Positions 1-8,331 of a stretch of 64,000 nt of DNA are shown in pieces. The notes under the pieces were generated by a model. It searched no databases. It saw nothing but the letters and a program-made list of their open reading frames with translations, and was not told where the DNA came from. The stretch comes from a virus: IMG/VR virus record IMGVR_UViG_3300009709_000022, positions 1-64,000 of that record; one strand, 5' to 3'. Position 1 is the first letter of the stretch. Each line of letters begins with the position of its first letter. The position numbers and the translations under genes are program-made.

Positions 1-65
1 AGACGCGCTGCATTCAAAACGCAGTGTCCTCGGACGTGCGGGTTCGATCCCCGCGGCCGGCACCA
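1..65 (+). tRNA. tRNA-Leu(CAA), 5' truncated by window edge
   Basis: Anticodon loop TT-CAA-AA, long variable arm, T-loop GTTCGAT, ends ACCA. Confidence 0.85.
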
Positions 66-69
66 AGAT

Positions 70-158
70 AGTGAGTTGGGGGAGATGGATTAACCCAGCG
101 TCCTGCTAAGACGCCATGCCTGCGGGCATCATCAGTTCGAATCTGATACTCACTGCCA
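70..158 (+). tRNA. tRNA-Ser(GCT)
   Basis: Acceptor AGTGAGT/ACTCACT, arm GCGTC-CTGCTAA-GACGC, long V arm, GCCA end. Confidence 0.93.
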
Positions 159-161
159 CAT

Positions 162-250
162 GGAGGGTGCCGAGCACGGTGCTCAAACGGTCCTGAAAAC
201 CGCGGTCTGTACGCGAGTGCAGAATGGTTCAATTCCGTCACCCTCTTCCA
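162..250 (+). tRNA. tRNA-Ser(TGA) with C33
   Basis: Acceptor GGAGGGT/ACCCTCT, loop CC-TGA-AA, long V arm, CCA. Confidence 0.85.
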
Positions 251-253
251 CAT

Positions 254-338
254 GGACGCGCGGGCAAAAGGTCGCCCACCCAGTCTGTAAAACTGGGGCC
301 TCACGGCACTGAAGGTTCGACTCCTTCCGCGTCCACCA
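254..338 (+). tRNA. tRNA-Tyr(GTA)
   Basis: CCAGT-CTGTAAA-ACTGG arm, V arm, ACCA. Confidence 0.95.
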
Positions 339-381
339 TTTTTCTGTTGCATCCATGCTTGCACTCGTGAGAGATTGTTTT

Positions 382-459
382 TGCGCGGTAGAGCAGTCCG
401 GTTAGCTCGCGTGGCTCATAACCACGAGGTCGGGGGTTCGAATCCCTCCTGCGCAACCA
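382..459 (+). tRNA. tRNA-Met(CAT), initiator-like
   Basis: CGTGG-CTCATAA-CCACG; fMet-type D arm GAGCAGTCCGGTTAGCTC; only two G-C pairs at stem base and a U1-A72 pair. Confidence 0.88.
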
Positions 460-461
460 TT

Positions 462-957
462 GAAGTTCGTATCCGGGAATCAGAGAAATCTGTTGGGTGC
501 GCGCAACACAAGGCCTCTTCGAGAAAGTCCTGTGTGCCCTGGGGGTACTGAAGCCATATATCTCCCGTAGGTGGCTTCTGCGAGTCCGTCGTAACAAGGT
601 CAGCAACCGTAATATCTGCCAAAACGGACCACCGGTGACAGCTCGGAGAGACGAGCAGACATTGAGATACCACACGAGAGGGTGAAAGGAATCTCTGCTG
701 TTGTACGGTGTGTCGCTCCTAAGAGGCCAACGGTAAGGGAGCCAGCTCTACGATCAGACAACGGTTGGGCGGCAACAGAGATGCAGTTCCGAGTATCCCG
801 TATTCAGAGAGCCGGATGGGCACCGGCGTAAGCGAAGGCAAGCCGCGCCAGCGGTGATGGCAGACAGAACCGATCGATTGAGCCAGGGTATATTCCACCC
901 TGATCGGTGCCGCCGAGCAACCAAAGTCCGAGCGAGCCCGGCGCTATATCCGGGCAA
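462..957 (+). ncRNA. Large structured ncRNA, GOLLD-like candidate
   Basis: No credible ORF; helices 550-557/571-578, 584-589/624-629, 691-702/771-782, 869-876/901-908, 936-941/950-955; lies inside a tRNA array. Confidence 0.5.
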
Positions 958-979
958 AACTTTTTGCGAGGACGAAACC

Positions 980-1246
980 GTGGAAAAGACAGTTGAAGAT
1001 CGGGTAAGCGAAATACTTTTCGAGCAGATGCATGGTGGCGCTCTGACTTACAACTCGGACGAAATCAAGCCAGAATCTAGTCTTGCCGAAGATTTGGGGT
1101 TCGACTCGCTCGACCTGGTAGAGACCGTGATGACGCTTGAAGAGCAGTTCGACATCACGATCACCGACGAAGAAGCGGAAGCTGTTTCAGACAAAACCTT
1201 CGCGGATGTTGTTACTCTGGTGAAGAAAAAGCTGGAGGAGAAGTAG
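980..1246 (+). CDS. acpP: Acyl carrier protein
   Basis: LGFDSLDLVE phosphopantetheine-attachment motif, acidic, LEEQFDITI; GTG start after GAGGA. Confidence 0.9.
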   Translation: MEKTVEDRVSEILFEQMHGGALTYNSDEIKPESSLAEDLGFDSLDLVETVMTLEEQFDITITDEEAEAVSDKTFADVVTLVKKKLEEK

Positions 1247-1248
1247 CC

Positions 1249-1524
1249 ATGGCAGATCCGACGATTCCGGACGTAGAAGATAAAGAGCTTCCGCTGTACG
1301 TGTGCCACAAGGAAGTGCGCGCGCTGAAAATTGCCCGCGTCGAATACTTGAGCATGTCACTGGTGCGTGTCTACTTCGAAGATGATTCGTTTGGATTCCG
1401 CGACTATGCCACGGAGAACCGTCCTGTTCCGCAGGCCGGCTACTACTACGTGGAGTATTCGAACGGCTACTACAGTTCTTCGCCGGCGGAAGAGTTCGAA
1501 GACGGTTACACGTTGAAGCAGTAA
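1249..1524 (+). CDS. Conserved small phage protein
   Basis: YxCHKEVRALKI and GYYxxSPAEEFEDGY motifs recalled from phage proteins; RBS GGAGGAG. Confidence 0.7.
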   Translation: MADPTIPDVEDKELPLYVCHKEVRALKIARVEYLSMSLVRVYFEDDSFGFRDYATENRPVPQAGYYYVEYSNGYYSSSPAEEFEDGYTLKQ

Positions 1525-1535
1525 GCCATCAAGAT

Positions 1536-1673
1536 GGCGCCGCGCAGGCCGATCCAATCGGTCTAGTGGCGCCCCGGAAACGTTGAGCCTGGGTGATGCC
1601 AGCACGGAAGGATAGGCGCAAGCCGAAAGGAGTGGGGGCGCAGAGGAACCCCTTCCATCCGCCTCAACGTTTC
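1536..1673 (+). ncRNA. Candidate structured RNA upstream of tRNA-Asp
   Basis: 11-bp stem 1577-1587/1663-1673 enclosing 1606-1611/1651-1656 and a GCAA tetraloop hairpin; separate hairpin 1536-1573. Confidence 0.4.
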
Positions 1674-1679
1674 ACCCTC

Positions 1680-1753
1680 GGTCCCGTCGTTCAGTGGCAG
1701 GACGCTTGATTGTCTATCAGGCTACCGGAGTTCGATTCTCCGCGGGACCGCCA
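1680..1753 (+). tRNA. tRNA-Asp(GTC)
   Basis: GGTCCCG/CGGGACC acceptor, loop TT-GTC-TA, GCCA. Confidence 0.92.
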
Positions 1754-1774
1754 AAGATTTGCGAGGACGACGCA

Positions 1775-1945
1775 ATGGACCTATACGCGAGAAAAGCTGA
1801 AGACGGCAGTTGCTGGCTTGTTCTGAAGAGAGTTTTCGGCCCGAGCAGTGAGGGCTGGAAAGAGCGATTTCCCCGGTGGGAAGAAGTTGTTGGTATGGGC
1901 TCTACTCGGAAACAAGCATTTGCCGATGCTGAGGCGCGCGCATGA
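1775..1945 (+). CDS. Small hypothetical protein
   Basis: ATG after GCGAGGACGA motif; overlaps next gene (ATGA). Confidence 0.6.
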   Translation: MDLYARKAEDGSCWLVLKRVFGPSSEGWKERFPRWEEVVGMGSTRKQAFADAEARA

Positions 1946-2208
1946 GTAACTGGGGAACAGTAGAGACGTGGAGCGAAGACAAGAGCGAGACTATCGCGCT
2001 TGATGTCGTTCCTGTTTTGGAGTTCAACGGTGAAGTGTTCATGTCGGCCGCGCATGAAAAGGGTGAGCTTTGCCAATGCAAGCCACTTGGTATGAAGAAC
2101 GACCAAGGAATCCAGATGTGGATTCACAACGACCCCGAACATCCAGGTTCAAACGAACGCATCGCCACTGGCGATTACGAAGGAGTGCATCATGGCCGGA
2201 TTCAGTAA
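1942..2208 (+). CDS. Hypothetical protein
   Basis: Coupled ORF in operon. Confidence 0.6.
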   Translation: MSNWGTVETWSEDKSETIALDVVPVLEFNGEVFMSAAHEKGELCQCKPLGMKNDQGIQMWIHNDPEHPGSNERIATGDYEGVHHGRIQ

Positions 2209-2410
2209 AGAAGACATTGAAGAGTTGTTCACGTATCACGCACCAAAGGATGATCAGCCACAGCGATACCAGGCCATTCGTGATGCTGCCAAGCAGTTTG
2301 CGCTCGTGTTGATTGCAAACACGAAGCCGAGCGCGGACCAGTCATCCGCTGTTCGCCATCTTCGCGATTGTGTGATGACTGCCAATGCCTCGATCGCGCT
2401 GGAGAAGTAG
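2192..2410 (+). CDS. Acb2/Tad1-hairpin-like protein (putative immune-signal sponge)
   Basis: FTYHAP...RYQAIR.AAK...S.D.S.A...L...VM.ANASIA pattern, recalled family resemblance; RBS AAGGAG. Confidence 0.6.
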   Translation: MAGFSKEDIEELFTYHAPKDDQPQRYQAIRDAAKQFALVLIANTKPSADQSSAVRHLRDCVMTANASIALEK

Positions 2411-2412
2411 CC

Positions 2413-2565
2413 ATGGAGAAGACCTACCAAGTTAAGGCTTTCACTTCGTGCCGTGACATGGAAGATTGGCTCAACGAAAACGCGACTGAATATGAACCCA
2501 TCAGCATTGCAGACGCCGACCGCTATGTCACTGTGTTGGTGAAGCGCATCATCAAGCCGAGTTAG
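2413..2565 (+). CDS. Small hypothetical protein
   Basis: RBS GGAGAAG, tight operon spacing. Confidence 0.55.
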   Translation: MEKTYQVKAFTSCRDMEDWLNENATEYEPISIADADRYVTVLVKRIIKPS

Positions 2566-2566
2566 C

Positions 2567-3082
2567 ATGGCGAAGATCGTCACCTATCCGAGCGACATCC
2601 TGAAGACGAACTGCACGCCGGTAGAACCCGGCAGCAGTGTCGCTCACCATCTGCAGCGCGAGCTTCGTGCCACCATGCACGCCGGCCGCGCTCAGGGGAT
2701 CGGCCTGGCAGCGCCGCAGATTGGCATTACGCTGCGCGCGTTCGCCATGGATACGCGATTCCTGAAGTTGAAGTGCCCCGACGTGTTCTTTAATCCTGAA
2801 GTGATCGAAGAGAGCCCAGAGGTGGACGTAGAGGAAGAATCTTGTCTCAGCTTTCCGCCCAAAGTGAAAGTGCGTGTACAGCGCAGGAAGCGTGTGCGGG
2901 TCAAGGCGTGTGATGTGAACGGCAAGGATTTCGAGATTGATTTGGTCGGGCTCGCCGCGCGTTGCGCGCTGCATGAGATCGACCACCTGAACGGCAAAAC
3001 AATCCTTGACCACGCGGGGAAGAAAGAAAAAAATCGCATCCTTGGTGAAATTGCGGTTGACATCAAGCGTGGGCGCAAGTAG
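2567..3082 (+). CDS. def: Peptide deformylase
   Basis: GIGLAAPQIG, ESCLS, HEIDHLNG motifs. Confidence 0.95.
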   Translation: MAKIVTYPSDILKTNCTPVEPGSSVAHHLQRELRATMHAGRAQGIGLAAPQIGITLRAFAMDTRFLKLKCPDVFFNPEVIEESPEVDVEEESCLSFPPKVKVRVQRRKRVRVKACDVNGKDFEIDLVGLAARCALHEIDHLNGKTILDHAGKKEKNRILGEIAVDIKRGRK

Positions 3083-3085
3083 ATT
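3057..3085 (+). promoter_or_regulatory. Sigma70-type promoter for tRNA operon 2
   Basis: TTGACA (3057-3062), 17 bp, TAGATT (3080-3085). Confidence 0.8.
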
Positions 3086-3095
3086 CGAAATCGTT

Positions 3096-3167
3096 ATGAA
3101 GATGTCGATGACACATACGTTTACCAATCGCGCCGCGGCACAACCGCGCCAGGGTATCCGCATGTAA
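3096..3167 (+). CDS. Attenuator leader peptide 1 (MKMSMTHTFTNRAAAQPRQGIRM)
   Basis: 23-codon ORF just after the promoter; codons 6-20 are all read by downstream-cluster tRNAs. Confidence 0.75.
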   Translation: MKMSMTHTFTNRAAAQPRQGIRM

Positions 3168-3238
3168 GCGCCAGATCTTCTCCAGGTAAAACCAGAGAGG
3201 CCCCCCGGCGCTAACCAGCCCAGGGGGCCATAGTTTTT
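3167..3238 (+). terminator. Attenuator 1 (antiterminator/terminator)
   Basis: Terminator GGCCCCC 3199-3205/GGGGGCC 3223-3229 with T-run 3234-3238; competing helix 3167-3172/3207-3212 plus 3177-3182/3195-3200. Confidence 0.6.
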
Positions 3239-3244
3239 GCACGA

Positions 3245-3319
3245 TGTTCGGTAGCTCAATGGAAGAGCGCGGAGCTGTTAACTCCGGAGATGTGGGTTCG
3301 ACCCCCACCTGAACAGCCA
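3245..3319 (+). tRNA. tRNA-Asn(GTT)
   Basis: CGGAG-CTGTTAA-CTCCG, GCCA. Confidence 0.93.
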
Positions 3320-3325
3320 GTTTGA

Positions 3326-3402
3326 TGGGAAGTAGTTCAAGTAGGCAGAACGCTGCGCTCTGGACGCAGAGGTTGAAGGTTCGAGGCCTTCCTTCCCATC
3401 CA
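3326..3402 (+). tRNA. tRNA-Gln(CTG)
   Basis: CTGCG-CTCTGGA-CGCAG, U1-A72, CCA. Confidence 0.92.
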
Positions 3403-3412
3403 CAAATTTTGA

Positions 3413-3486
3413 TCCGTGTTCGTTCAATGGTAGGACGGCGACCTTTGGAGTCACCTATCGGGGTTCGATTCCCTGACACGGATCCA
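3413..3486 (+). tRNA. tRNA-Gln(TTG)
   Basis: Loop CT-TTG-GA, acceptor TCCGTGT/ACACGGA, CCA. Confidence 0.9.
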
Positions 3487-3490
3487 GTTT

Positions 3491-3566
3491 GCGGGAATAG
3501 CTCAGTGGTATGAGCGTCGGCTTGCCAAGTCGAAGGCCGTGGGTTCGACCCCCACTTCCCGCTCCA
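3491..3566 (+). tRNA. tRNA-Gly(GCC)
   Basis: GCGGGAA start, loop TT-GCC-AA, TCCA. Confidence 0.95.
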
Positions 3567-3573
3567 CTTCAAC

Positions 3574-3649
3574 GCCGGTGTAGCTCAGTTGGAAGAGCAG
3601 CGCACTCGTAACGCGCAGGTCGCCGGTTCGATTCCGGCCGCCGGCTCCA
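3574..3649 (+). tRNA. tRNA-Thr(CGT)
   Basis: Loop CT-CGT-AA, canonical cloverleaf. Confidence 0.93.
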
Positions 3650-3673
3650 AAAGGAAGAGGAAGGAGGCAACGT

Positions 3674-4186
3674 GTGGGACGCATTCTTGAAGCTGCGGTG
3701 TTGGTTCTCAACGCATCGTACGAGCCTATTCACATCTGCGGCGCACGTCGTGCTCTTTCTCTTGTAGTGAAGGACACGGCGCATGTTGAGCATCACACGG
3801 GCCGCGAAGTCTATGCCGGGATCATGCTTCCGAGCGTTATCCGTTTGAAGCGGTACCGCAAGGTTCCGAATCGTGTGCAGGTGTTGACGCGGAAGAATGT
3901 GCTGATGCGCGACAACAACACCTGCCAGTATTGCGGCGTAGTGTTCGTGCCGTCTGAATTGACGCTTGACCACGTCATGCCGCGGTCTCGGGGTGGTATA
4001 TCGACGTGGGAGAACCTGGTCGCCGCGTGTGGCCCGTGCAATCGCGAGAAGGCGGATCGTACGCCAGAGGAGGCCTGCATGCCGCTTCTGCGGCGTCCCA
4101 GGCCTGTCACGCTACACACGGCGCGCGGGATCCTTCGTCAGCATGGTCATTCGATGGAGGCGTGGCGTCCGTACTTGTTCTTTTAA
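3674..4186 (+). CDS. HNH endonuclease (McrA-like)
   Basis: VLVLNASYEP, RDNNTCQYCG, TLDHVMPRSRGG, NLVAACGPCN; RBS AAGGAGG. Confidence 0.92.
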   Translation: MGRILEAAVLVLNASYEPIHICGARRALSLVVKDTAHVEHHTGREVYAGIMLPSVIRLKRYRKVPNRVQVLTRKNVLMRDNNTCQYCGVVFVPSELTLDHVMPRSRGGISTWENLVAACGPCNREKADRTPEEACMPLLRRPRPVTLHTARGILRQHGHSMEAWRPYLFF

Positions 4187-4262
4187 GCCGCTGGAGTTCG
4201 GGAGGTAGAACGCTCCCTTGGTATGGGAGAGGATTCGGGTTCGACGCCCGACAGCGGCTCCA
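4187..4262 (+). tRNA. tRNA-Thr(GGT)
   Basis: CTCCC-TTGGTAT-GGGAG; abuts HNH stop codon. Confidence 0.88.
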
Positions 4263-4269
4263 ACAATTC

Positions 4270-4345
4270 GCCCGGTTAGCTCATTCGGTAGAGCGCCTGT
4301 TTTGTACTCAGGAGGCGGCGGGATCATAGCCTGCACCGGGCTCCA
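4270..4345 (+). tRNA. tRNA-Thr(TGT), atypical T-loop
   Basis: Loop TT-TGT-AC; T-loop ATCATAG. Confidence 0.8.
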
Positions 4346-4351
4346 ACATGT

Positions 4352-4427
4352 GGAGGGTATGGCCGAGCGGCAGAGGCGCAGGTCTGTGGCACCTGAAACC
4401 GGAGTTCAAGTCTCCGTGCCCTCCCCA
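4352..4427 (+). tRNA. tRNA-His(GTG)
   Basis: CAGGT-CTGTGGC-ACCTG, encoded G-1:C73. Confidence 0.92.
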
Positions 4428-4447
4428 ATAAGTTCGTTGTAAGAAGT

Positions 4448-4522
4448 GGGCGCGTAGTGCTAGCGGGAACACATCCGGCCTGCAACCGGAAATTGAGGGT
4501 TCGACTCCCTCCGTGTCCACCA
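4448..4522 (+). tRNA. tRNA-Ala(TGC) with C33
   Basis: TCCGG-CCTGCAA-CCGGA; G3:U70 Ala identity pair; A73. Confidence 0.87.
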
Positions 4523-4528
4523 AGTTTT

Positions 4529-4604
4529 GGCTGAGTAGCTGATGAGGTCTTAGCGCCGCGCTGAAAACGCGGAGATGTCGGTTCGATACCGGCCTCAGCC
4601 ACCA
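4529..4604 (+). tRNA. tRNA-Phe(GAA)
   Basis: CCGCG-CTGAAAA-CGCGG, ACCA. Confidence 0.92.
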
Positions 4605-4609
4605 TAGTT

Positions 4610-4683
4610 CGGGGTATAGCTGGAGGGTCAAGCCTACGTCCTGGGAACGTAAGATGACAGTTCGATTCTGTCTACCCCGACCA
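4610..4683 (+). tRNA. tRNA-Pro(TGG) with C33
   Basis: C1-G72, A73, TACGT-CCTGGGA-ACGTA. Confidence 0.85.
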
Positions 4684-4687
4684 TCAT

Positions 4688-4765
4688 CCACCCGTCGCCC
4701 AACTGGATAGGGCACCGCGCTACGAACGCGGAATAGTGTAGGTTCGATCCCTACCGGGTGGACCA
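4688..4765 (+). tRNA. tRNA-Arg(ACG)
   Basis: CCGCG-CTACGAA-CGCGG, ACCA. Confidence 0.92.
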
Positions 4766-4779
4766 TTTACAATGCTTGC

Positions 4780-4965
4780 ATGAGCGAGCCAAAGTACAAC
4801 CTCATGAAAGAAGCACGCGACACGGTGAGTGGGTGGGCGGCAGTGGCGAAGAACCTCACGCTGAAAGCCGCTGAGGCGATGGCAGCTCGCCGCGAAGCAC
4901 TTACACCTTGGGCATTCCACCACAAGAATCCCGATCGCGTGTATCACTTGATTGAGCCGGTGTAA
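4780..4965 (+). CDS. Small hypothetical protein
   Basis: Fills the gap between tRNA clusters; start overlaps ATGCTTGCAT motif. Confidence 0.55.
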   Translation: MSEPKYNLMKEARDTVSGWAAVAKNLTLKAAEAMAARREALTPWAFHHKNPDRVYHLIEPV

Positions 4966-4971
4966 AAATAA

Positions 4972-5002
4972 TTGCGGCGAACAGCGGTTCCTGTGGTAAG
5001 TT
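4972..5002 (+). promoter_or_regulatory. Putative extended -10 promoter for tRNA operon 3
   Basis: TGnTAAGTT at 4994-5002, TTGCGG at 4972, AT-rich upstream. Confidence 0.5.
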
Positions 5003-5024
5003 CTTCAACAGCAGATACACGATC

Positions 5025-5099
5025 ATGAGGCAGATAACCAAAAACGTCGTCACCATTCAGATTCGCGGAAAGCGGATGTGGGAAGGTGCGCGTACTTAG
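5025..5099 (+). CDS. Attenuator leader peptide 2 (MRQITKNVVTIQIRGKRMWEGART)
   Basis: 24 codons including AGG, ATA, AAA, GTC, ATT, GGA, AAG, CGG, ATG, TGG, GAA, matching downstream tRNAs. Confidence 0.75.
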   Translation: MRQITKNVVTIQIRGKRMWEGART

Positions 5100-5167
5100 G
5101 GGTCTGTTTCACAAGCTCACTTGCGACAAGTGAACGGGCCCCTCCTAACCGGAGGGGCTTTGCTTTT
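5098..5167 (+). terminator. Attenuator 2 (antiterminator/terminator)
   Basis: Terminator GCCCCTCC-TAACC-GGAGGGGC-TTTGCTTTT (5138-5167); 11-bp antiterminator 5098-5108/5133-5143 overlapping the stop codon. Confidence 0.8.
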
Positions 5168-5179
5168 GGTCTTTGACAA
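5168..5179 (+). promoter_or_regulatory. boxA-like Nus antitermination element
   Basis: GGTCTTTGACAA resembles rrn boxA GCTCTTTAACAA. Confidence 0.45.
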
Positions 5180-5198
5180 TCGAATCGTATTCACCAAT

Positions 5199-5274
5199 GA
5201 GGGTGAAGTTCATGTGGAAGAACGCCGGTCTCCAAAACCGGATGCTGCCCGTTCGAACCGGGCCACCCTCGCCA
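5199..5274 (+). tRNA. tRNA-Trp(CCA)
   Basis: CCGGT-CTCCAAA-ACCGG, GCCA. Confidence 0.93.
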
Positions 5275-5275
5275 T

Positions 5276-5350
5276 CCCTCTTTAGCTCATCGGAAGAGCA
5301 ACCGGCTCATAACCGGTAGGCGCCAGGGTCAGCACCTGGAAGAGGGACCA
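5276..5350 (+). tRNA. tRNA(CAT), elongator Met or Ile2; atypical T-loop
   Basis: ACCGG-CTCATAA-CCGGT; T-loop GTCAGCA. Confidence 0.8.
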
Positions 5351-5352
5351 TC

Positions 5353-5438
5353 GCGTCCGTGGCAGAGAGGCTTATGCACCCGACTCTTAATCGGAGGGAG
5401 AGATCCCAACGTCGGTTCGAATCCGGCCGGACGCACCA
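5353..5438 (+). tRNA. tRNA-Lys(CTT) with long variable arm
   Basis: Loop CT-CTT-AA; V-arm GGGA-GAGA-TCCC; Leu-like D arm. Confidence 0.8.
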
Positions 5439-5444
5439 ATTTTC

Positions 5445-5521
5445 GGGATCGTCGCATAGAGGATAGCTGCACTCGCCTTTTAAGCGAAGAGACGTGAGTT
5501 CGAATCTCACCGGTCCCACCA
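5445..5521 (+). tRNA. tRNA-Lys(TTT)
   Basis: Loop CT-TTT-AA, ACCA. Confidence 0.9.
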
Positions 5522-5526
5522 TTTAT

Positions 5527-5602
5527 GCGCCTGTAGCTCAGAGGACAGAGCAGTGGACTTCTAAGCCAACGGCCGCTGGTTCGACTCCAGCCAGGCGCTC
5601 CA
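5527..5602 (+). tRNA. tRNA-Arg(TCT)
   Basis: Loop CT-TCT-AA (weak stem), canonical D and T arms. Confidence 0.87.
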
Positions 5603-5607
5603 GTTTT

Positions 5608-5681
5608 GGCGTGTTCGTTCAACGGTAGGACACCTGCTTTTCACGCAGAGAACACGGGTTCAACTCCCGTACACGCCCCCA
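5608..5681 (+). tRNA. tRNA-Glu(TTC)
   Basis: Loop TT-TTC-AC, GGCGTGT/ACACGCC. Confidence 0.9.
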
Positions 5682-5682
5682 T

Positions 5683-5758
5683 GACCCTGTAGCTCAGTGG
5701 AGAGAGCGGCCGGCTCCTACCCGGCAGGTCCCGCGTTCGAGTCGCGGCAGGGTCACCA
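5683..5758 (+). tRNA. tRNA-Arg(CCT)
   Basis: GCCGG-CTCCTAC-CCGGC. Confidence 0.9.
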
Positions 5759-5762
5759 ATTC

Positions 5763-5839
5763 GCGCGCGTAGCTCAGTGGACCAGAGCGATGCTCTCCGA
5801 AGGCATAGGCCGCAGGTTCAAGTCCTGCCGCGCGCACCA
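5763..5839 (+). tRNA. tRNA-Arg(CCG)
   Basis: ATGCT-CTCCGAA-GGCAT. Confidence 0.92.
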
Positions 5840-5844
5840 GTTTC

Positions 5845-5920
5845 GCCAGATTCGACAAGCGGCTAAGTCACTTGGCCTACACCCAAGCATCCGGGGGTTC
5901 GAGTCCCTCATCTGGCACCA
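5845..5920 (+). tRNA. tRNA-Val(TAC) with C33
   Basis: CTTGG-CCTACAC-CCAAG, A73. Confidence 0.87.
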
Positions 5921-5924
5921 AGTT

Positions 5925-6026
5925 CGCCCATTCGTCTGGCCGGCGGTTCGAGACCGCGCTGCGCACCCAACCGCGCAAACGGGTCCGGCTCCGAGTGGGG
6001 GTGGTTCGATTCCACCAGGGCGGCTA
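5925..6026 (+). ncRNA. tRNA-like element lacking a normal anticodon arm and CCA
   Basis: Perfect T arm GGTGG-TTCGATT-CCACC (6000-6016) and CGCCC/GGGCG acceptor-like stem; aberrant middle; ends GCTA. Confidence 0.45.
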
Positions 6027-6047
6027 ACGGCCGCTCGCGCAGGGTTT

Positions 6048-6121
6048 CCTCGCGTAGCTCAACGGAAGAGCTTCCGCTTGATAAGCGGCAGACAGTGGTT
6101 CAACTCCACTCGCGAGGACCA
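6048..6121 (+). tRNA. tRNA-Ile(GAT)
   Basis: Loop TT-GAT-AA, ACCA. Confidence 0.92.
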
Positions 6122-6168
6122 TCTCATGCAAGCATCGTGTATGCTGTCACAAAAGGAGGGCAACCTGC

Positions 6169-6378
6169 ATGCCCATTACGACACGACGGAAACGAAAGAC
6201 CACGCCGCGCAAGACTTCACTGAAGAAGATTGCAACTCTGATCATCATGCGCGACAGCATGACTGAGTTCGAGATCGCCGACGCGAAGAGAGGGTTCGCG
6301 AAGTCCGGGGTGAATCTGATTGTCATTCCTTACGGCAGTGGATCGTCTACGCCTCGTATTGAGGCTCAACCGTTTTAA
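6169..6378 (+). CDS. Small basic hypothetical protein
   Basis: RBS AAGGAGG; stop abuts tRNA-Gly. Confidence 0.6.
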   Translation: MPITTRRKRKTTPRKTSLKKIATLIIMRDSMTEFEIADAKRGFAKSGVNLIVIPYGSGSSTPRIEAQPF

Positions 6379-6454
6379 GCGAGCATCGTCCAATGGTTAG
6401 GGCCACAGCCTTCCAAGCTGTTGATGACCGGTTCGAGTCCGGCTGTTCGCTCCA
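6379..6454 (+). tRNA. tRNA-Gly(TCC)
   Basis: ACAGC-CTTCCAA-GCTGT, TCCA. Confidence 0.93.
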
Positions 6455-6460
6455 AATCAG

Positions 6461-6484
6461 AAGGCCACCCATTCGGGTGGCCTT
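6461..6484. terminator. Hairpin closing the tRNA array between convergent units
   Basis: AAGGCCACCC-ATTC-GGGTGGCCTT. Confidence 0.75.
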
Positions 6485-6490
6485 TGCCAT

Positions 6491-6892
6491 TTACGCTTGC
6501 AGCATGCCAGAGGAAAGAAGACCTCTTAAAATACCTGCAAAAATGTGATCTTTTGCGCGTTGCGCCTTTGGCAGTTCAGAGTAGGGGACGAAGCATGGAT
6601 GCTCTTTTTTTTCCGCATCCTTAACGGGACCGTACCCCCATCCATCGGCACGTTTTTGTTCCATCCAGGACTCGTGAAGTCGTTCCGGTATCTGCCGAAG
6701 GCGCTCGCTGCCATCTCCGTAATATCGCACCGTCCGCAGGAAGTATTTGACGCCGGTAATGTTCGTTTCTTGCTGCCATGAAGGAGCGGATGACCAGTCA
6801 GGAAAAGATGTGTCTCCCAATGCAAGGGCGTATGCCCGGTTGGCTTCGTAGCAAATACGCGCCGCTTCTTCAATTGTGATGAGTTCTTCCAT
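6491..6892 (-). CDS. RyR-domain phage protein
   Basis: HESWMEQKRADGWGYG...K.HPCFVPYSELP..QRAKD. Confidence 0.85.
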   Translation of the reverse strand: MEELITIEEAARICYEANRAYALALGDTSFPDWSSAPSWQQETNITGVKYFLRTVRYYGDGSERLRQIPERLHESWMEQKRADGWGYGPVKDAEKKEHPCFVPYSELPKAQRAKDHIFAGILRGLLSSGMLQA

Positions 6893-6966
6893 GATGTCCT
6901 CGCTAGTGGATGTGGTGATGCTTGCACGAATGCTATCATCACACCATCTCAACGCTGGTGCGTCCT

Positions 6967-8331
6967 GTGATCATTTACAACTCACTATTCCCCCAGGTGC
7001 AGAACGGGCTCGCTGCCCGGCTCCGCTCCATGCTGCCCACCCTTGCCGCCTACGGCTTCAACGGCCTGCTGTGGCCACCCCTCACACAGAACGGATCGGG
7101 TGGAGAGAAGTCGCAGTCCCTCGGTTATGACAAGCGGTACGACCTGCATGTTGGACAGTGGGATTCTCTCCGCTGGGGTTCCGCGCAGGATGTTCAGGCG
7201 ACGAATCTGGAAGCCCACCGCAACGGGATGATGGTGCTGGAGGATTCTGTCATCCATCAGTATTCTGGCGCCGGCGCGCAGACATACAACGAGCTGGGAG
7301 CGGAAGGCCAGCCCGATTCTACGCTGTTCCCAAAGCGTCCTTCCTGCTTCGTCCATCCGGAGACGCCGCGAGACACGCTATTCGACGCTGATGGCGATCA
7401 GCCATACGGCGACCAGGTAACGTACCAGCACTGCAAGCCCGCCGGATACATGCTCAAGGGCATCATCCAGGCAACGCAGTGGCGTCGCAACCGTCTAGGC
7501 ATGGACGGCATGCGCGTGGACATGGCTAAAAACGAGGCCTCTGCGATCGTCAAACAGTACGCTGCAGCCGTTGGCGGGTGGAACTTCTGCGAGACCTTCG
7601 TTGGTGACAAGGGCGAACTAGGCAGCTTCATCTCGCAGACTGGACAGCGCGTGCTGGACTTCCCATTCCATTGGGCAGTGCAACACATCTGTGACCACGG
7701 TTGGTCATTGCGCTCATTCCCCGGCAGCTCGCTATGCGAGATGAATGCCAGCAAGAGCGTTCTCTTTGTTGACACCGCGGACACGGATCAGAGCAACGAT
7801 GAGAACGTGAAGTTCAACAAGCTGTGGGCATACCTGCTTGCGTTGACCATGCCCGCGGCGGCCGCACTGGTTTACGCGGGCGATTACGAACGCTATGGGC
7901 TAGCGAAGCCCATCGACAACCTTGCGTGGATTGCCACGACGTTCGCTATTGGCGCGCTCACTTGGCAGCACGTCGACGACACGGCGTTGGTGTGGTCGCG
8001 GGATGGTGACGGAGGCTCCCTGGGATGGTCCGGTGGCTTGCTCTGTGCCTTCAGCACGCAGCCGGTGGAGCAACGCAGCGTATGGACTCCAACCACCTTT
8101 GCGTCAGGCACACACCTGCACGATTACACCGGACATGGGCCCGACTTGTGGGTGGACGATGACGGATGGGTTGAGCTGCAGCTTGGGCCCAACGTCAACG
8201 GAACCGCCGCAAACTACGTCTGCTACGCACCTGCCGGCGTCAATTACAAAATACCCATCCACGCGCGTCCAGAGGGCATCCGGGGCTCGCTCTACGACTT
8301 CTCTGACATAACTGTGAGGTTCACCGCATGA
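6967..8331 (+). CDS. GH13 alpha-amylase-family glycoside hydrolase (start uncertain, 6922-6967)
   Basis: LWPP, GYD, DGMRVDMAK (nucleophile), FCE (acid/base), FVDTAD (region IV). Confidence 0.85.
   Translation: MIIYNSLFPQVQNGLAARLRSMLPTLAAYGFNGLLWPPLTQNGSGGEKSQSLGYDKRYDLHVGQWDSLRWGSAQDVQATNLEAHRNGMMVLEDSVIHQYSGAGAQTYNELGAEGQPDSTLFPKRPSCFVHPETPRDTLFDADGDQPYGDQVTYQHCKPAGYMLKGIIQATQWRRNRLGMDGMRVDMAKNEASAIVKQYAAAVGGWNFCETFVGDKGELGSFISQTGQRVLDFPFHWAVQHICDHGWSLRSFPGSSLCEMNASKSVLFVDTADTDQSNDENVKFNKLWAYLLALTMPAAAALVYAGDYERYGLAKPIDNLAWIATTFAIGALTWQHVDDTALVWSRDGDGGSLGWSGGLLCAFSTQPVEQRSVWTPTTFASGTHLHDYTGHGPDLWVDDDGWVELQLGPNVNGTAANYVCYAPAGVNYKIPIHARPEGIRGSLYDFSDITVRFTA

Follow-up and report, generated by a model that had tools for sequence, protein, structure and literature searches.

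The genome of the phage IMGVR_UViG_3300009709_000022 comprises 96,524 bp with a GC content of 56% and a 123-bp direct terminal repeat, and is contained as a whole in one contig of a moss metagenome, probably the one from which the record derives. The window analysed here is its first 64 kb (64,000 nt). ARAGORN detected 30 tRNAs in the genome, to which one Ser(UGA)-like tRNA can be added, and every tRNA lies on the same strand, from genome position 96192 across the record ends to window position 6454. The tRNA genes are organized into three blocks (clusters 1, 2 and 3), each of which has its own leader upstream (hereafter referred to as leaders 0, 1 and 2). The distal part of cluster 1 (positions 1..459, + strand) contains the 3′ end of tRNA-Leu(CAA), Ser(GCT), the Ser(UGA)-like gene with C33, Tyr and a CAU tRNA; leader 0, its terminator and three Leu tRNAs lie beyond the window, at genome 96023–96466 (L003 724–1167). 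Cluster 2 (3245..4765, + strand; ARAGORN and Rfam) consists of 12 tRNAs in the order Asn(GTT), Gln(CTG), Gln(TTG), Gly(GCC), Thr(CGT), Thr(GGT), Thr(TGT), His(GTG), Ala(TGC), Phe(GAA), Pro(TGG) and Arg(ACG), with the anticodons that the first-pass annotation had read from the sequence. An open reading frame (ORF) encoding an HNH endonuclease (3674..4186, + strand) is inserted within cluster 2, at the junction between tRNA-Thr(CGT) and tRNA-Thr(GGT). Cluster 3 (5199..6454, + strand; ARAGORN and Rfam) consists of Trp, CAU, Lys(CTT), Lys(TTT), Arg(TCT), Glu, Arg(CCT), Arg(CCG), Val(TAC), Ile(GAT) and Gly(TCC).

Leader 1 and its codon match with cluster 2

Leader 1 is preceded by a predicted sigma-70-type promoter, TTGACA-17-TAGATT (3057..3085, + strand), which matches the consensus at 10/12 positions and is the best site in 7 kb in a consensus scan. 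The leader 1 ORF (3096..3167, + strand) comprises 23 codons, from the ATG at 3096 to the TAA at 3165–3167. The ATG is located 10 nt past the −10 box, as noted in the first-pass annotation, and the leader 1 mRNA would thus be nearly leaderless. Codons 6–20 (3111..3155, + strand) form the core of the match: re-reading the sequence returned exactly the 15 codons listed before, and all 15 are read by cluster 2 tRNAs, cover all 12 of these tRNAs and include three different Thr codons and both Gln codons. Cluster 2 reads 25 of the 61 codons under extended wobble, as previously counted, and 21 under strict wobble. Standard wobble fits 13 of the 15 core codons; the GCC codon, assigned to tRNA-Ala(UGC), requires four-way U34 reading, and the CCG codon, assigned to tRNA-Pro(UGG), forms an ordinary U:G pair.

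The earlier estimate of about 1e-6 for the chance occurrence of this match ignored local composition and is too optimistic, because the stretch is rich in C and A and its other two frames give matches at 8–9 of 13–14 codons. We evaluated the match against the genome itself and against shuffled sequences. Among all 15-codon segments in the six frames of the 96.5-kb genome (n = 192,960), seven have all 15 codons within the 25-codon set, and only one, the segment at 3111, covers 12/12 cluster 2 tRNAs; the next-best coverage elsewhere in the genome is 11, in one segment. Dinucleotide shuffles of the ORF core reached 12/12 in 0.0002 of the trials, and the strict-wobble comparison with genomic segments gave p = 4e-5. 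The codon match of leader 1 is real and far beyond chance.

Downstream of the ORF, a GC-rich hairpin followed by a U-run (3199..3238, + strand) ends 6 nt before tRNA-Asn. The hairpin at 3199–3229 folds with −22.4 kcal/mol and a CUAACC apex, and is followed by AUAG and then by UUUUU at 3234–3238, in agreement with the offset T-run described earlier. As the T-run begins 4 nt past the stem, the consensus scan did not list this terminator, and termination may be poor. Both competing helices named in the first-pass annotation are present (AGCGCC/GGCGCU, 3167–3172/3207–3212; CUUCUC/GAGAGG, 3177–3182/3195–3200). Folding places the candidate 5′ strands of an antiterminator at 3146..3182 (+ strand), among which GCGCC-A-GGG (3146–3154) pairs with 3203–3211, and a ribosome at codons 21–24 is predicted to cover these strands.

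Leaders 0 and 2 of the same phage

A further leader, rich in Leu, Ser and Tyr codons, had been predicted upstream of the window, and was found at genome 96059–96133, ahead of the Leu/Ser/Tyr block. Codons 3–15 of this leader 0 ORF are 13 consecutive Leu, Ser or Tyr codons, and cluster 1 behind it carries three Leu, two Ser and one Tyr tRNAs. Its promoter, TTGACG-18-TAGATT, shares the −10 hexamer with leader 1 and with leader 1 of the phage Tunturi_5 described below. Its terminator is canonical, a −18 kcal/mol hairpin followed by UUUUUGCUUUG, and ends 8 nt before tRNA-Leu(TAA). Under strict wobble, the matched codons of leader 0 give p = 3e-4, a score that rests partly on the Ser(UGA)-like tRNA with its sub-threshold Rfam score.

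The leader 2 ORF (5025..5099, + strand; 24 codons and TAG) lies upstream of cluster 3. Its putative promoter is an extended −10 element, TGG TAAGTT (4994..5002, + strand), recognized by eye in the sequence; the consensus scan was negative here. The sensing zone of leader 2 contains 13 codons out of 20 that are read by cluster 3 tRNAs, and 9/11 cluster 3 tRNAs are covered under strict wobble (p = 6e-4); AGA is missing, and seven codons of the zone are also read by cluster 2. The predicted switch of leader 2 (5098..5170, + strand; z = −4.4) comprises an antiterminator, in which 5098–5112, beginning within the stop codon, pairs with 5130–5143, a small hairpin at 5117–5133, and a terminator at 5136–5160 (−19 kcal/mol) followed by UGCUUUUGG. 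Leaders 0 and 2 thus both carry canonical GC hairpins with U-runs, and leader 1 carries a strong hairpin with a U-run offset by 4 nt.

A UAACC motif is present in all three terminator loops (window 3212–3217 and 5145–5150, genome 96168–96173), where it forms the loop and part of the competing pairing; the Tunturi_5 leader 1 loop has CAACC instead.

Conservation and co-variation among relatives

The nearest characterised relative of the tRNA array is that of the cultured phage Tunturi_5 (PP885688.1), a jumbo Tunturiibacter phage with an Acidobacteriota host from Finnish soil (PMC11924767). Tunturi_5 carries the same three tRNA blocks in the same order, with an HNH ORF likewise between Thr(CGT) and Thr(GGT), and a homologous leader and a hairpin with a U-run precede each block. 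These leaders are located at 231156–231254 (leader 1, −10 box TAGATT), about 239222–239335 (leader 2) and 251573–251722 (leader 3; L126 2016–2165), the last being gp308, annotated as a hypothetical protein. Leader 2 of the present phage is homologous to gp308, both having an I-x-I-R-G-K/E-R motif. The IMG/VR contig L127 represents a third member of the family, with syntenic blocks, the HNH ORF at the same place and, before the contig ends, two homologous leaders, each with a hairpin and a U-run. Across the three members, the tRNA sequences are too diverged to serve as search patterns.

The codon content of the leaders shifts with the tRNA content of the blocks. TGC or TGT codons occur in the leaders of three blocks that bear tRNA-Cys (Tunturi_5, L127 and L128), and in the present phage Cys codons are absent from the leaders and tRNA-Cys is absent too. 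Tunturi_5 leader 3 has six Asp and six CGC codons ahead of a block with tRNA-Asp and tRNA-Arg(ACG), neither of which belongs to cluster 3 of the present phage, where leader 2 has no Asp codon. The Ala codons GCA, GCC and GCG all occur in Tunturi_5 leader 2, ahead of a block with three Ala tRNAs. ACA, ACC, ACG and both Gln codons are found in all three homologues of leader 1. The match is imperfect at the level of isoacceptors: the tail of Tunturi_5 leader 1 contains four GAC codons, and this leader includes CTA without Leu(TAG) and lacks CTG although Leu(CAG) is present.

In both complete phages, the leader-by-cluster matrices are strongly diagonal. Sensing-zone codons read by clusters 1/2/3 number 10/0/1 in leader 0 (zone of 11 codons), 3/15/4 in leader 1 (19 codons) and 1/7/13 in leader 2 (20 codons) of the present phage, and 11/1/1 in leader 1 (15 codons), 2/21/6 in leader 2 (26 codons) and 3/9/29 in leader 3 (39 codons) of Tunturi_5. 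Codons of the own cluster make up 133/192 (69%) of the sensing zones, compared with 24/72 (33%) of the tails (p = 1.4e-7). Strict-wobble p values are weak for Tunturi_5 leader 1, L127 leader A and L128.

The search with the HNH gene also led to unrelated, low-GC phages with tRNA arrays. In two of these phages, ATG ORFs ending at most 150 nt from a cluster start were scored (n = 23 cluster starts), and codon-matched upstream ORFs were found at 3/23 starts at a binomial p < 1e-3; many of the 23 starts have no codon-matched ORF. In the best case (p = 1.4e-5), a 23-codon ORF precedes Gln/Ile/Trp/Thr/Gly/Asn/Gln/Met tRNAs, with TTGACA-17-TATACT located 10 nt 5′ of its ATG. In the second, an ORF rich in Pro, Asp, Phe, Tyr and His precedes Pro/Asp/Pro/Asp/Phe/Tyr, and in the third, a Lys- and Ser-rich ORF precedes Lys/Lys/Ser. 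In a fourth candidate, L128, the terminator is perfect and the codon score weaker. The exact terminator pattern CCTAACCGGNGGGGNTTT returned more than 115 generic terminators in viral contigs, none of them adjoining tRNAs.

Predicted RNA switch

At equilibrium, with the full terminator present, folding favours the terminator at every ribosome position in leaders 1 and 2, and a switch must therefore be kinetic, as in classical attenuators. Because such folds are uninformative on a kinetic switch, we folded transcripts that end at the terminator loop, placing a ribosome footprint on every codon in turn, and, separately, only the RNA ahead of the ribosome. The constrained folding proposed in the first-pass annotation predicts a switch in truncated transcripts, weakly so for leader 1, and none at equilibrium with the complete terminator of leaders 1 and 2.

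The predicted layout is shared by the nine leaders folded in this study. In 9/9, the terminator 5′ arm finds its best partner within the final third of the ORF or at the stop codon; shuffles of this placement give p = 0.04–0.36 for individual leaders, and Fisher combination gives about 1e-3. In the folds of the RNA ahead of the ribosome, the C-rich 5′ arm is paired with the G-rich strand as long as the A site has not passed the first two thirds of the ORF, and is freed near the ORF end; early stalls thus sequester the arm in 9/9 leaders. In leader 2, pairing of the terminator 5′ arm drops from 0.8 to 0.4 when the A site is at codon 22. Among the nine, the weakest switch is predicted for leader 1, in which pairing falls only from 0.6–0.7 to 0.4–0.5. 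The competing strands change along with the terminator arms between homologues: GGGCG-U-GGG faces CCC-U-CGCCU in the present phage, GGUUGGG faces CCCAGCC in Tunturi_5, and UUGAGGG faces CCCUCGA in gp308. U-rich tracts directly follow 8/9 hairpins.

Proposed mechanism

We propose that the three tRNA blocks are transcription units, each gated by a ribosome-mediated (leader-peptide) attenuator, a reading to which we assign a probability of about 75% on the basis of sequence features and folding models. This reading, already put forward in the first-pass annotation, gained support from the third leader, the homologues, the diagonal matrices, the co-variation and the shared antiterminator layout. 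A short ORF lies between a promoter-like site and the first tRNA in leaders 0, 1 and 2, the leaders are enriched in codons tied to the genes that they would regulate, and an antiterminator dependent on ribosome position is predicted in 9/9 leaders, weakly so for leader 1. Observations made in silico comprise the ORFs, their codon match together with its conservation and co-variation, the U-run hairpins and the position of the competing strands; from them we infer promoter use, leader translation, termination and the response to tRNA shortage.

In the proposed mechanism, the promoter would fire into an ORF of 23–24 codons whose first codon lies at the 5′ end of the transcript or no more than about 15 nt from it. 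The first two thirds of the ORF would present codons read by the downstream block, with most isoacceptors represented one to three times, and the last third or the stop-codon region would provide a G-rich strand able to pair with the C-rich 5′ arm of the terminator. When decoding is prompt, the ribosome would reach the end of the ORF as the polymerase makes the terminator and would mask the G-rich strand, so that the terminator would form and end transcription a few bases short of the first tRNA. When any of the checked aminoacyl-tRNAs is scarce, the ribosome would stall upstream, allowing the G-rich strand to capture the 5′ arm and the tRNA genes to be transcribed. The phage thus probably makes the tRNAs of a block only when ribosomes decode the leader codons slowly, and the net logic would be a multi-input OR gate combined with negative feedback on tRNA supply. 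There is no clear Shine–Dalgarno sequence at the leaders, and translation would therefore depend on leaderless or near-leaderless initiation. Since most codons occur only one to three times, as opposed to the runs in classical attenuators, sensitivity to a mild shortage may be low.

Alternative explanations

One alternative retains a role for leader translation and places the read-out in Rho-dependent termination, RNase processing or tRNA-precursor stability instead of intrinsic termination, with the hairpin acting as a processing or stability element or as a constitutive partial terminator. Such a read-out would accommodate the offset U-run of leader 1, the hairpin without a U-run in the L155 leader, the retention of the terminator in all equilibrium folds and the start of the tRNAs just 6–15 nt past the hairpins, where an RNase P cut is needed anyway. 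We nevertheless regard it as unlikely, given the U-rich tracts after nearly all hairpins and a G-rich competitor that is placed, and co-varies, as expected of an antiterminator. Direct sensing of tRNAs by codon–anticodon pairing with the leader RNA, in the manner of T-boxes and without translation, would likewise explain why each leader displays codons for exactly the downstream tRNAs. The matching codons are, however, confined to a single frame from ATG to stop, with the other frames matching less well, neither a T-box nor any other Rfam family was detected at E ≤ 1, and known T-boxes read one specifier codon; we give this idea very little weight.

Two further explanations dispense with sensing. 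If the short ORFs encoded conserved micro-proteins with a function of their own, their resemblance to the neighbouring tRNA set would be incidental; peptide similarity between leader 2 and gp308 and among the leader 0 homologues, together with the length of the Tunturi_5 ORFs (32–49 codons), is compatible with this proposal. Yet the composition follows the local tRNA set even in non-homologous leaders of unrelated phages, shifts with tRNA content between homologues (Cys, Asp, CGC) and matches only in the zone upstream of the competing RNA strand, and all the ORFs are placed between promoter and hairpin, so that we judge the micro-protein explanation improbable. It is harder still to credit that these are chance ORFs in spacers of C/A-rich or otherwise biased composition that merely contain a promoter together with the upstream gene's terminator, in spite of the biased composition of leader 1, the 8–9 matches in its other frames and the post hoc nature of the finding. 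The 12/12 segment is unique genome-wide and rarely reproduced by dinucleotide shuffles (0.0002), each of the genome's three leaders matches its own block, and the third was found beyond the window where it had been predicted, with homologues in two other phages. Moreover, the order promoter, ORF, terminator means that the terminator cannot serve the upstream gene alone.

Comparison with known regulatory systems

Leader-peptide attenuators that sense several amino acids include thrL (Thr and Ile) and ilvL/ivbL (Ile, Leu and Val), and others of this kind are trpL, hisL, leuL and pheL. The phage leaders resemble these enterobacterial amino-acid operon leaders in the succession of a promoter, a codon-rich short ORF, alternative antiterminator and terminator hairpins and the regulated genes, in the selection of the hairpin by ribosome position, and in the sensing of several amino acids by one leader. 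Unlike the enterobacterial leaders, which precede genes for biosynthetic enzymes, the phage leaders precede tRNA genes; they would check up to 12 isoacceptors, mostly with one to three codons each and with synonymous codons spread out, whereas the enterobacterial leaders contain runs, and their mRNAs are leaderless or nearly so. In an Rfam cmscan, tRNAs were the sole hits in positions 1–7000 to pass the gathering threshold, and at E ≤ 1 no leader family was detected in 3040–5200, where leader 1 likewise gave no match to any family; the phage leaders therefore fall outside the curated amino-acid operon leaders, which are defined by Rfam homology and biosynthetic genes downstream.

The pheM leader attenuator controls the pheST operon, encoding phenylalanyl-tRNA synthetase, and thus similarly places a component of the decoding machinery under a leader peptide keyed to the matching aminoacyl-tRNA supply; it differs in sensing one amino acid, in controlling a protein-coding synthetase gene and in residing on a bacterial chromosome. 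T-box riboswitches are also terminator/antiterminator switches that sense tRNA status, and they regulate genes of tRNA charging and amino-acid supply. They bind one uncharged tRNA directly, by means of a specifier loop and a T-box motif and without translation, in contrast to the phage leaders, in which the signal is an in-frame ORF; no T-box match was found at E ≤ 1 in 3040–5200.

Leader-peptide attenuation is a textbook mechanism that, to our knowledge, has been described in amino-acid biosynthesis and for some synthetase genes and not for tRNA genes. A full-text literature search yielded no paper describing control of tRNA genes by a leader peptide or an attenuator. Later work on phage tRNA arrays, following an interpretation as compensation for codon usage, regards them as a counter to host tRNA depletion. 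The earlier interpretation is that of Bailly-Bechet et al. (2007), as cited in PMC11924767, and the latter, the Tunturi paper, does not mention leader control of the tRNA blocks. The literature on phage tRNA arrays deals with the same cargo, large and sorted arrays in big phages, and asks why tRNAs are carried; in the part that we searched, no translation-coupled transcription sensor was found.

Implications

If the attenuator reading is correct, the sorting of tRNAs into amino-acid blocks would be accounted for by a checklist that ribosomes read, a single attenuator would combine as many as a dozen inputs and resolve them by isoacceptor, and the phage would possess a circuit that holds tRNA supply steady. 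The tRNA cargo would also be tied to host defences that deplete tRNAs. Tentatively, and with considerable doubt, we raise the possibility that the leaders represent a widespread, undescribed class of phage sensors that test host decoding isoacceptor by isoacceptor, mainly for counter-defence. A host anticodon nuclease or phage-induced RNA decay that removes even one of the checked tRNAs would then stall the ribosome and turn on the matching block, and the layout of one codon per tRNA would suit all-or-none depletion and not graded amino-acid starvation. The leaders could also be used as compact reporters of tRNA availability. As the homologous system is present in Tunturi_5, which is cultured with an Acidobacteriota host, the idea is directly testable.

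Other features of the tRNA arrays and their surroundings

The HNH endonuclease occupies the same site inside a tRNA block in three phages. Aligning it to metagenome contigs was unproductive as a route to related arrays, since the 80 loci inspected, out of at least 579 relatives (56–61% identity), are all without tRNAs and look like bacterial homologues. The location of these closest relatives on soil metagenome contigs lacking tRNAs suggests that the HNH gene was acquired from bacteria, possibly from the host lineage. In Tunturi_5, gp308 looks internally duplicated, with the I-R-G-K/E-R motif occurring twice.

Between tRNA blocks, the region at 980–3082 encodes an acyl-carrier-protein-like product and, besides several small ORFs, a peptide deformylase (PF01327), whose closest homologue in the protein collection is P0002 (48% identity). 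The deformylase led to no relatives among viral contigs, and in genome contigs only bacterial def genes, at ≤40% identity, were found. The large ORF at 64055–66187, a putative terminase, led to relatives on short contigs without tRNA arrays. An ORF-poor gap of about 500 nt (462–957) follows the CAU tRNA of cluster 1, with a terminator-like hairpin at its end (936–955) and no Rfam family match at the gathering threshold.

Four contigs in a moss metatranscriptome are identical to window positions 1156–1519, 3727–3877 and 4046–4196, the last two intervals being within the HNH ORF. The phage may be active in the moss habitat, although DNA carry-over could also yield such contigs, and they hold no information on transcript starts, transcript ends or attenuation.

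The Ser(UGA)-like gene (161–250) encodes a type II tRNA with the anticodon loop CCUGAAA, in which C33 replaces U33. It was missed by ARAGORN, is sub-threshold in Rfam with 37 bits against the tRNA-Sec model, and is the only tRNA of the phage that reads UCN codons. Such long-arm (type II) tRNAs (Leu, Ser and Tyr) make up most of block 1. The tRNA with anticodon CUU (Lys; 5353–5438) measures 86 nt, implying a long variable arm, an unusual feature in a bacterial-type tRNA-Lys; in Tunturi_5, the Lys(TTT) gene is 85 nt (ARAGORN) and the Lys(CTT) gene 78 nt. Under extended wobble, the phage tRNAs, which include no tRNA-Cys, read all sense codons except TGC, TGT and possibly ATA. All seven of the phage tRNA genes that were aligned terminate in CCA.
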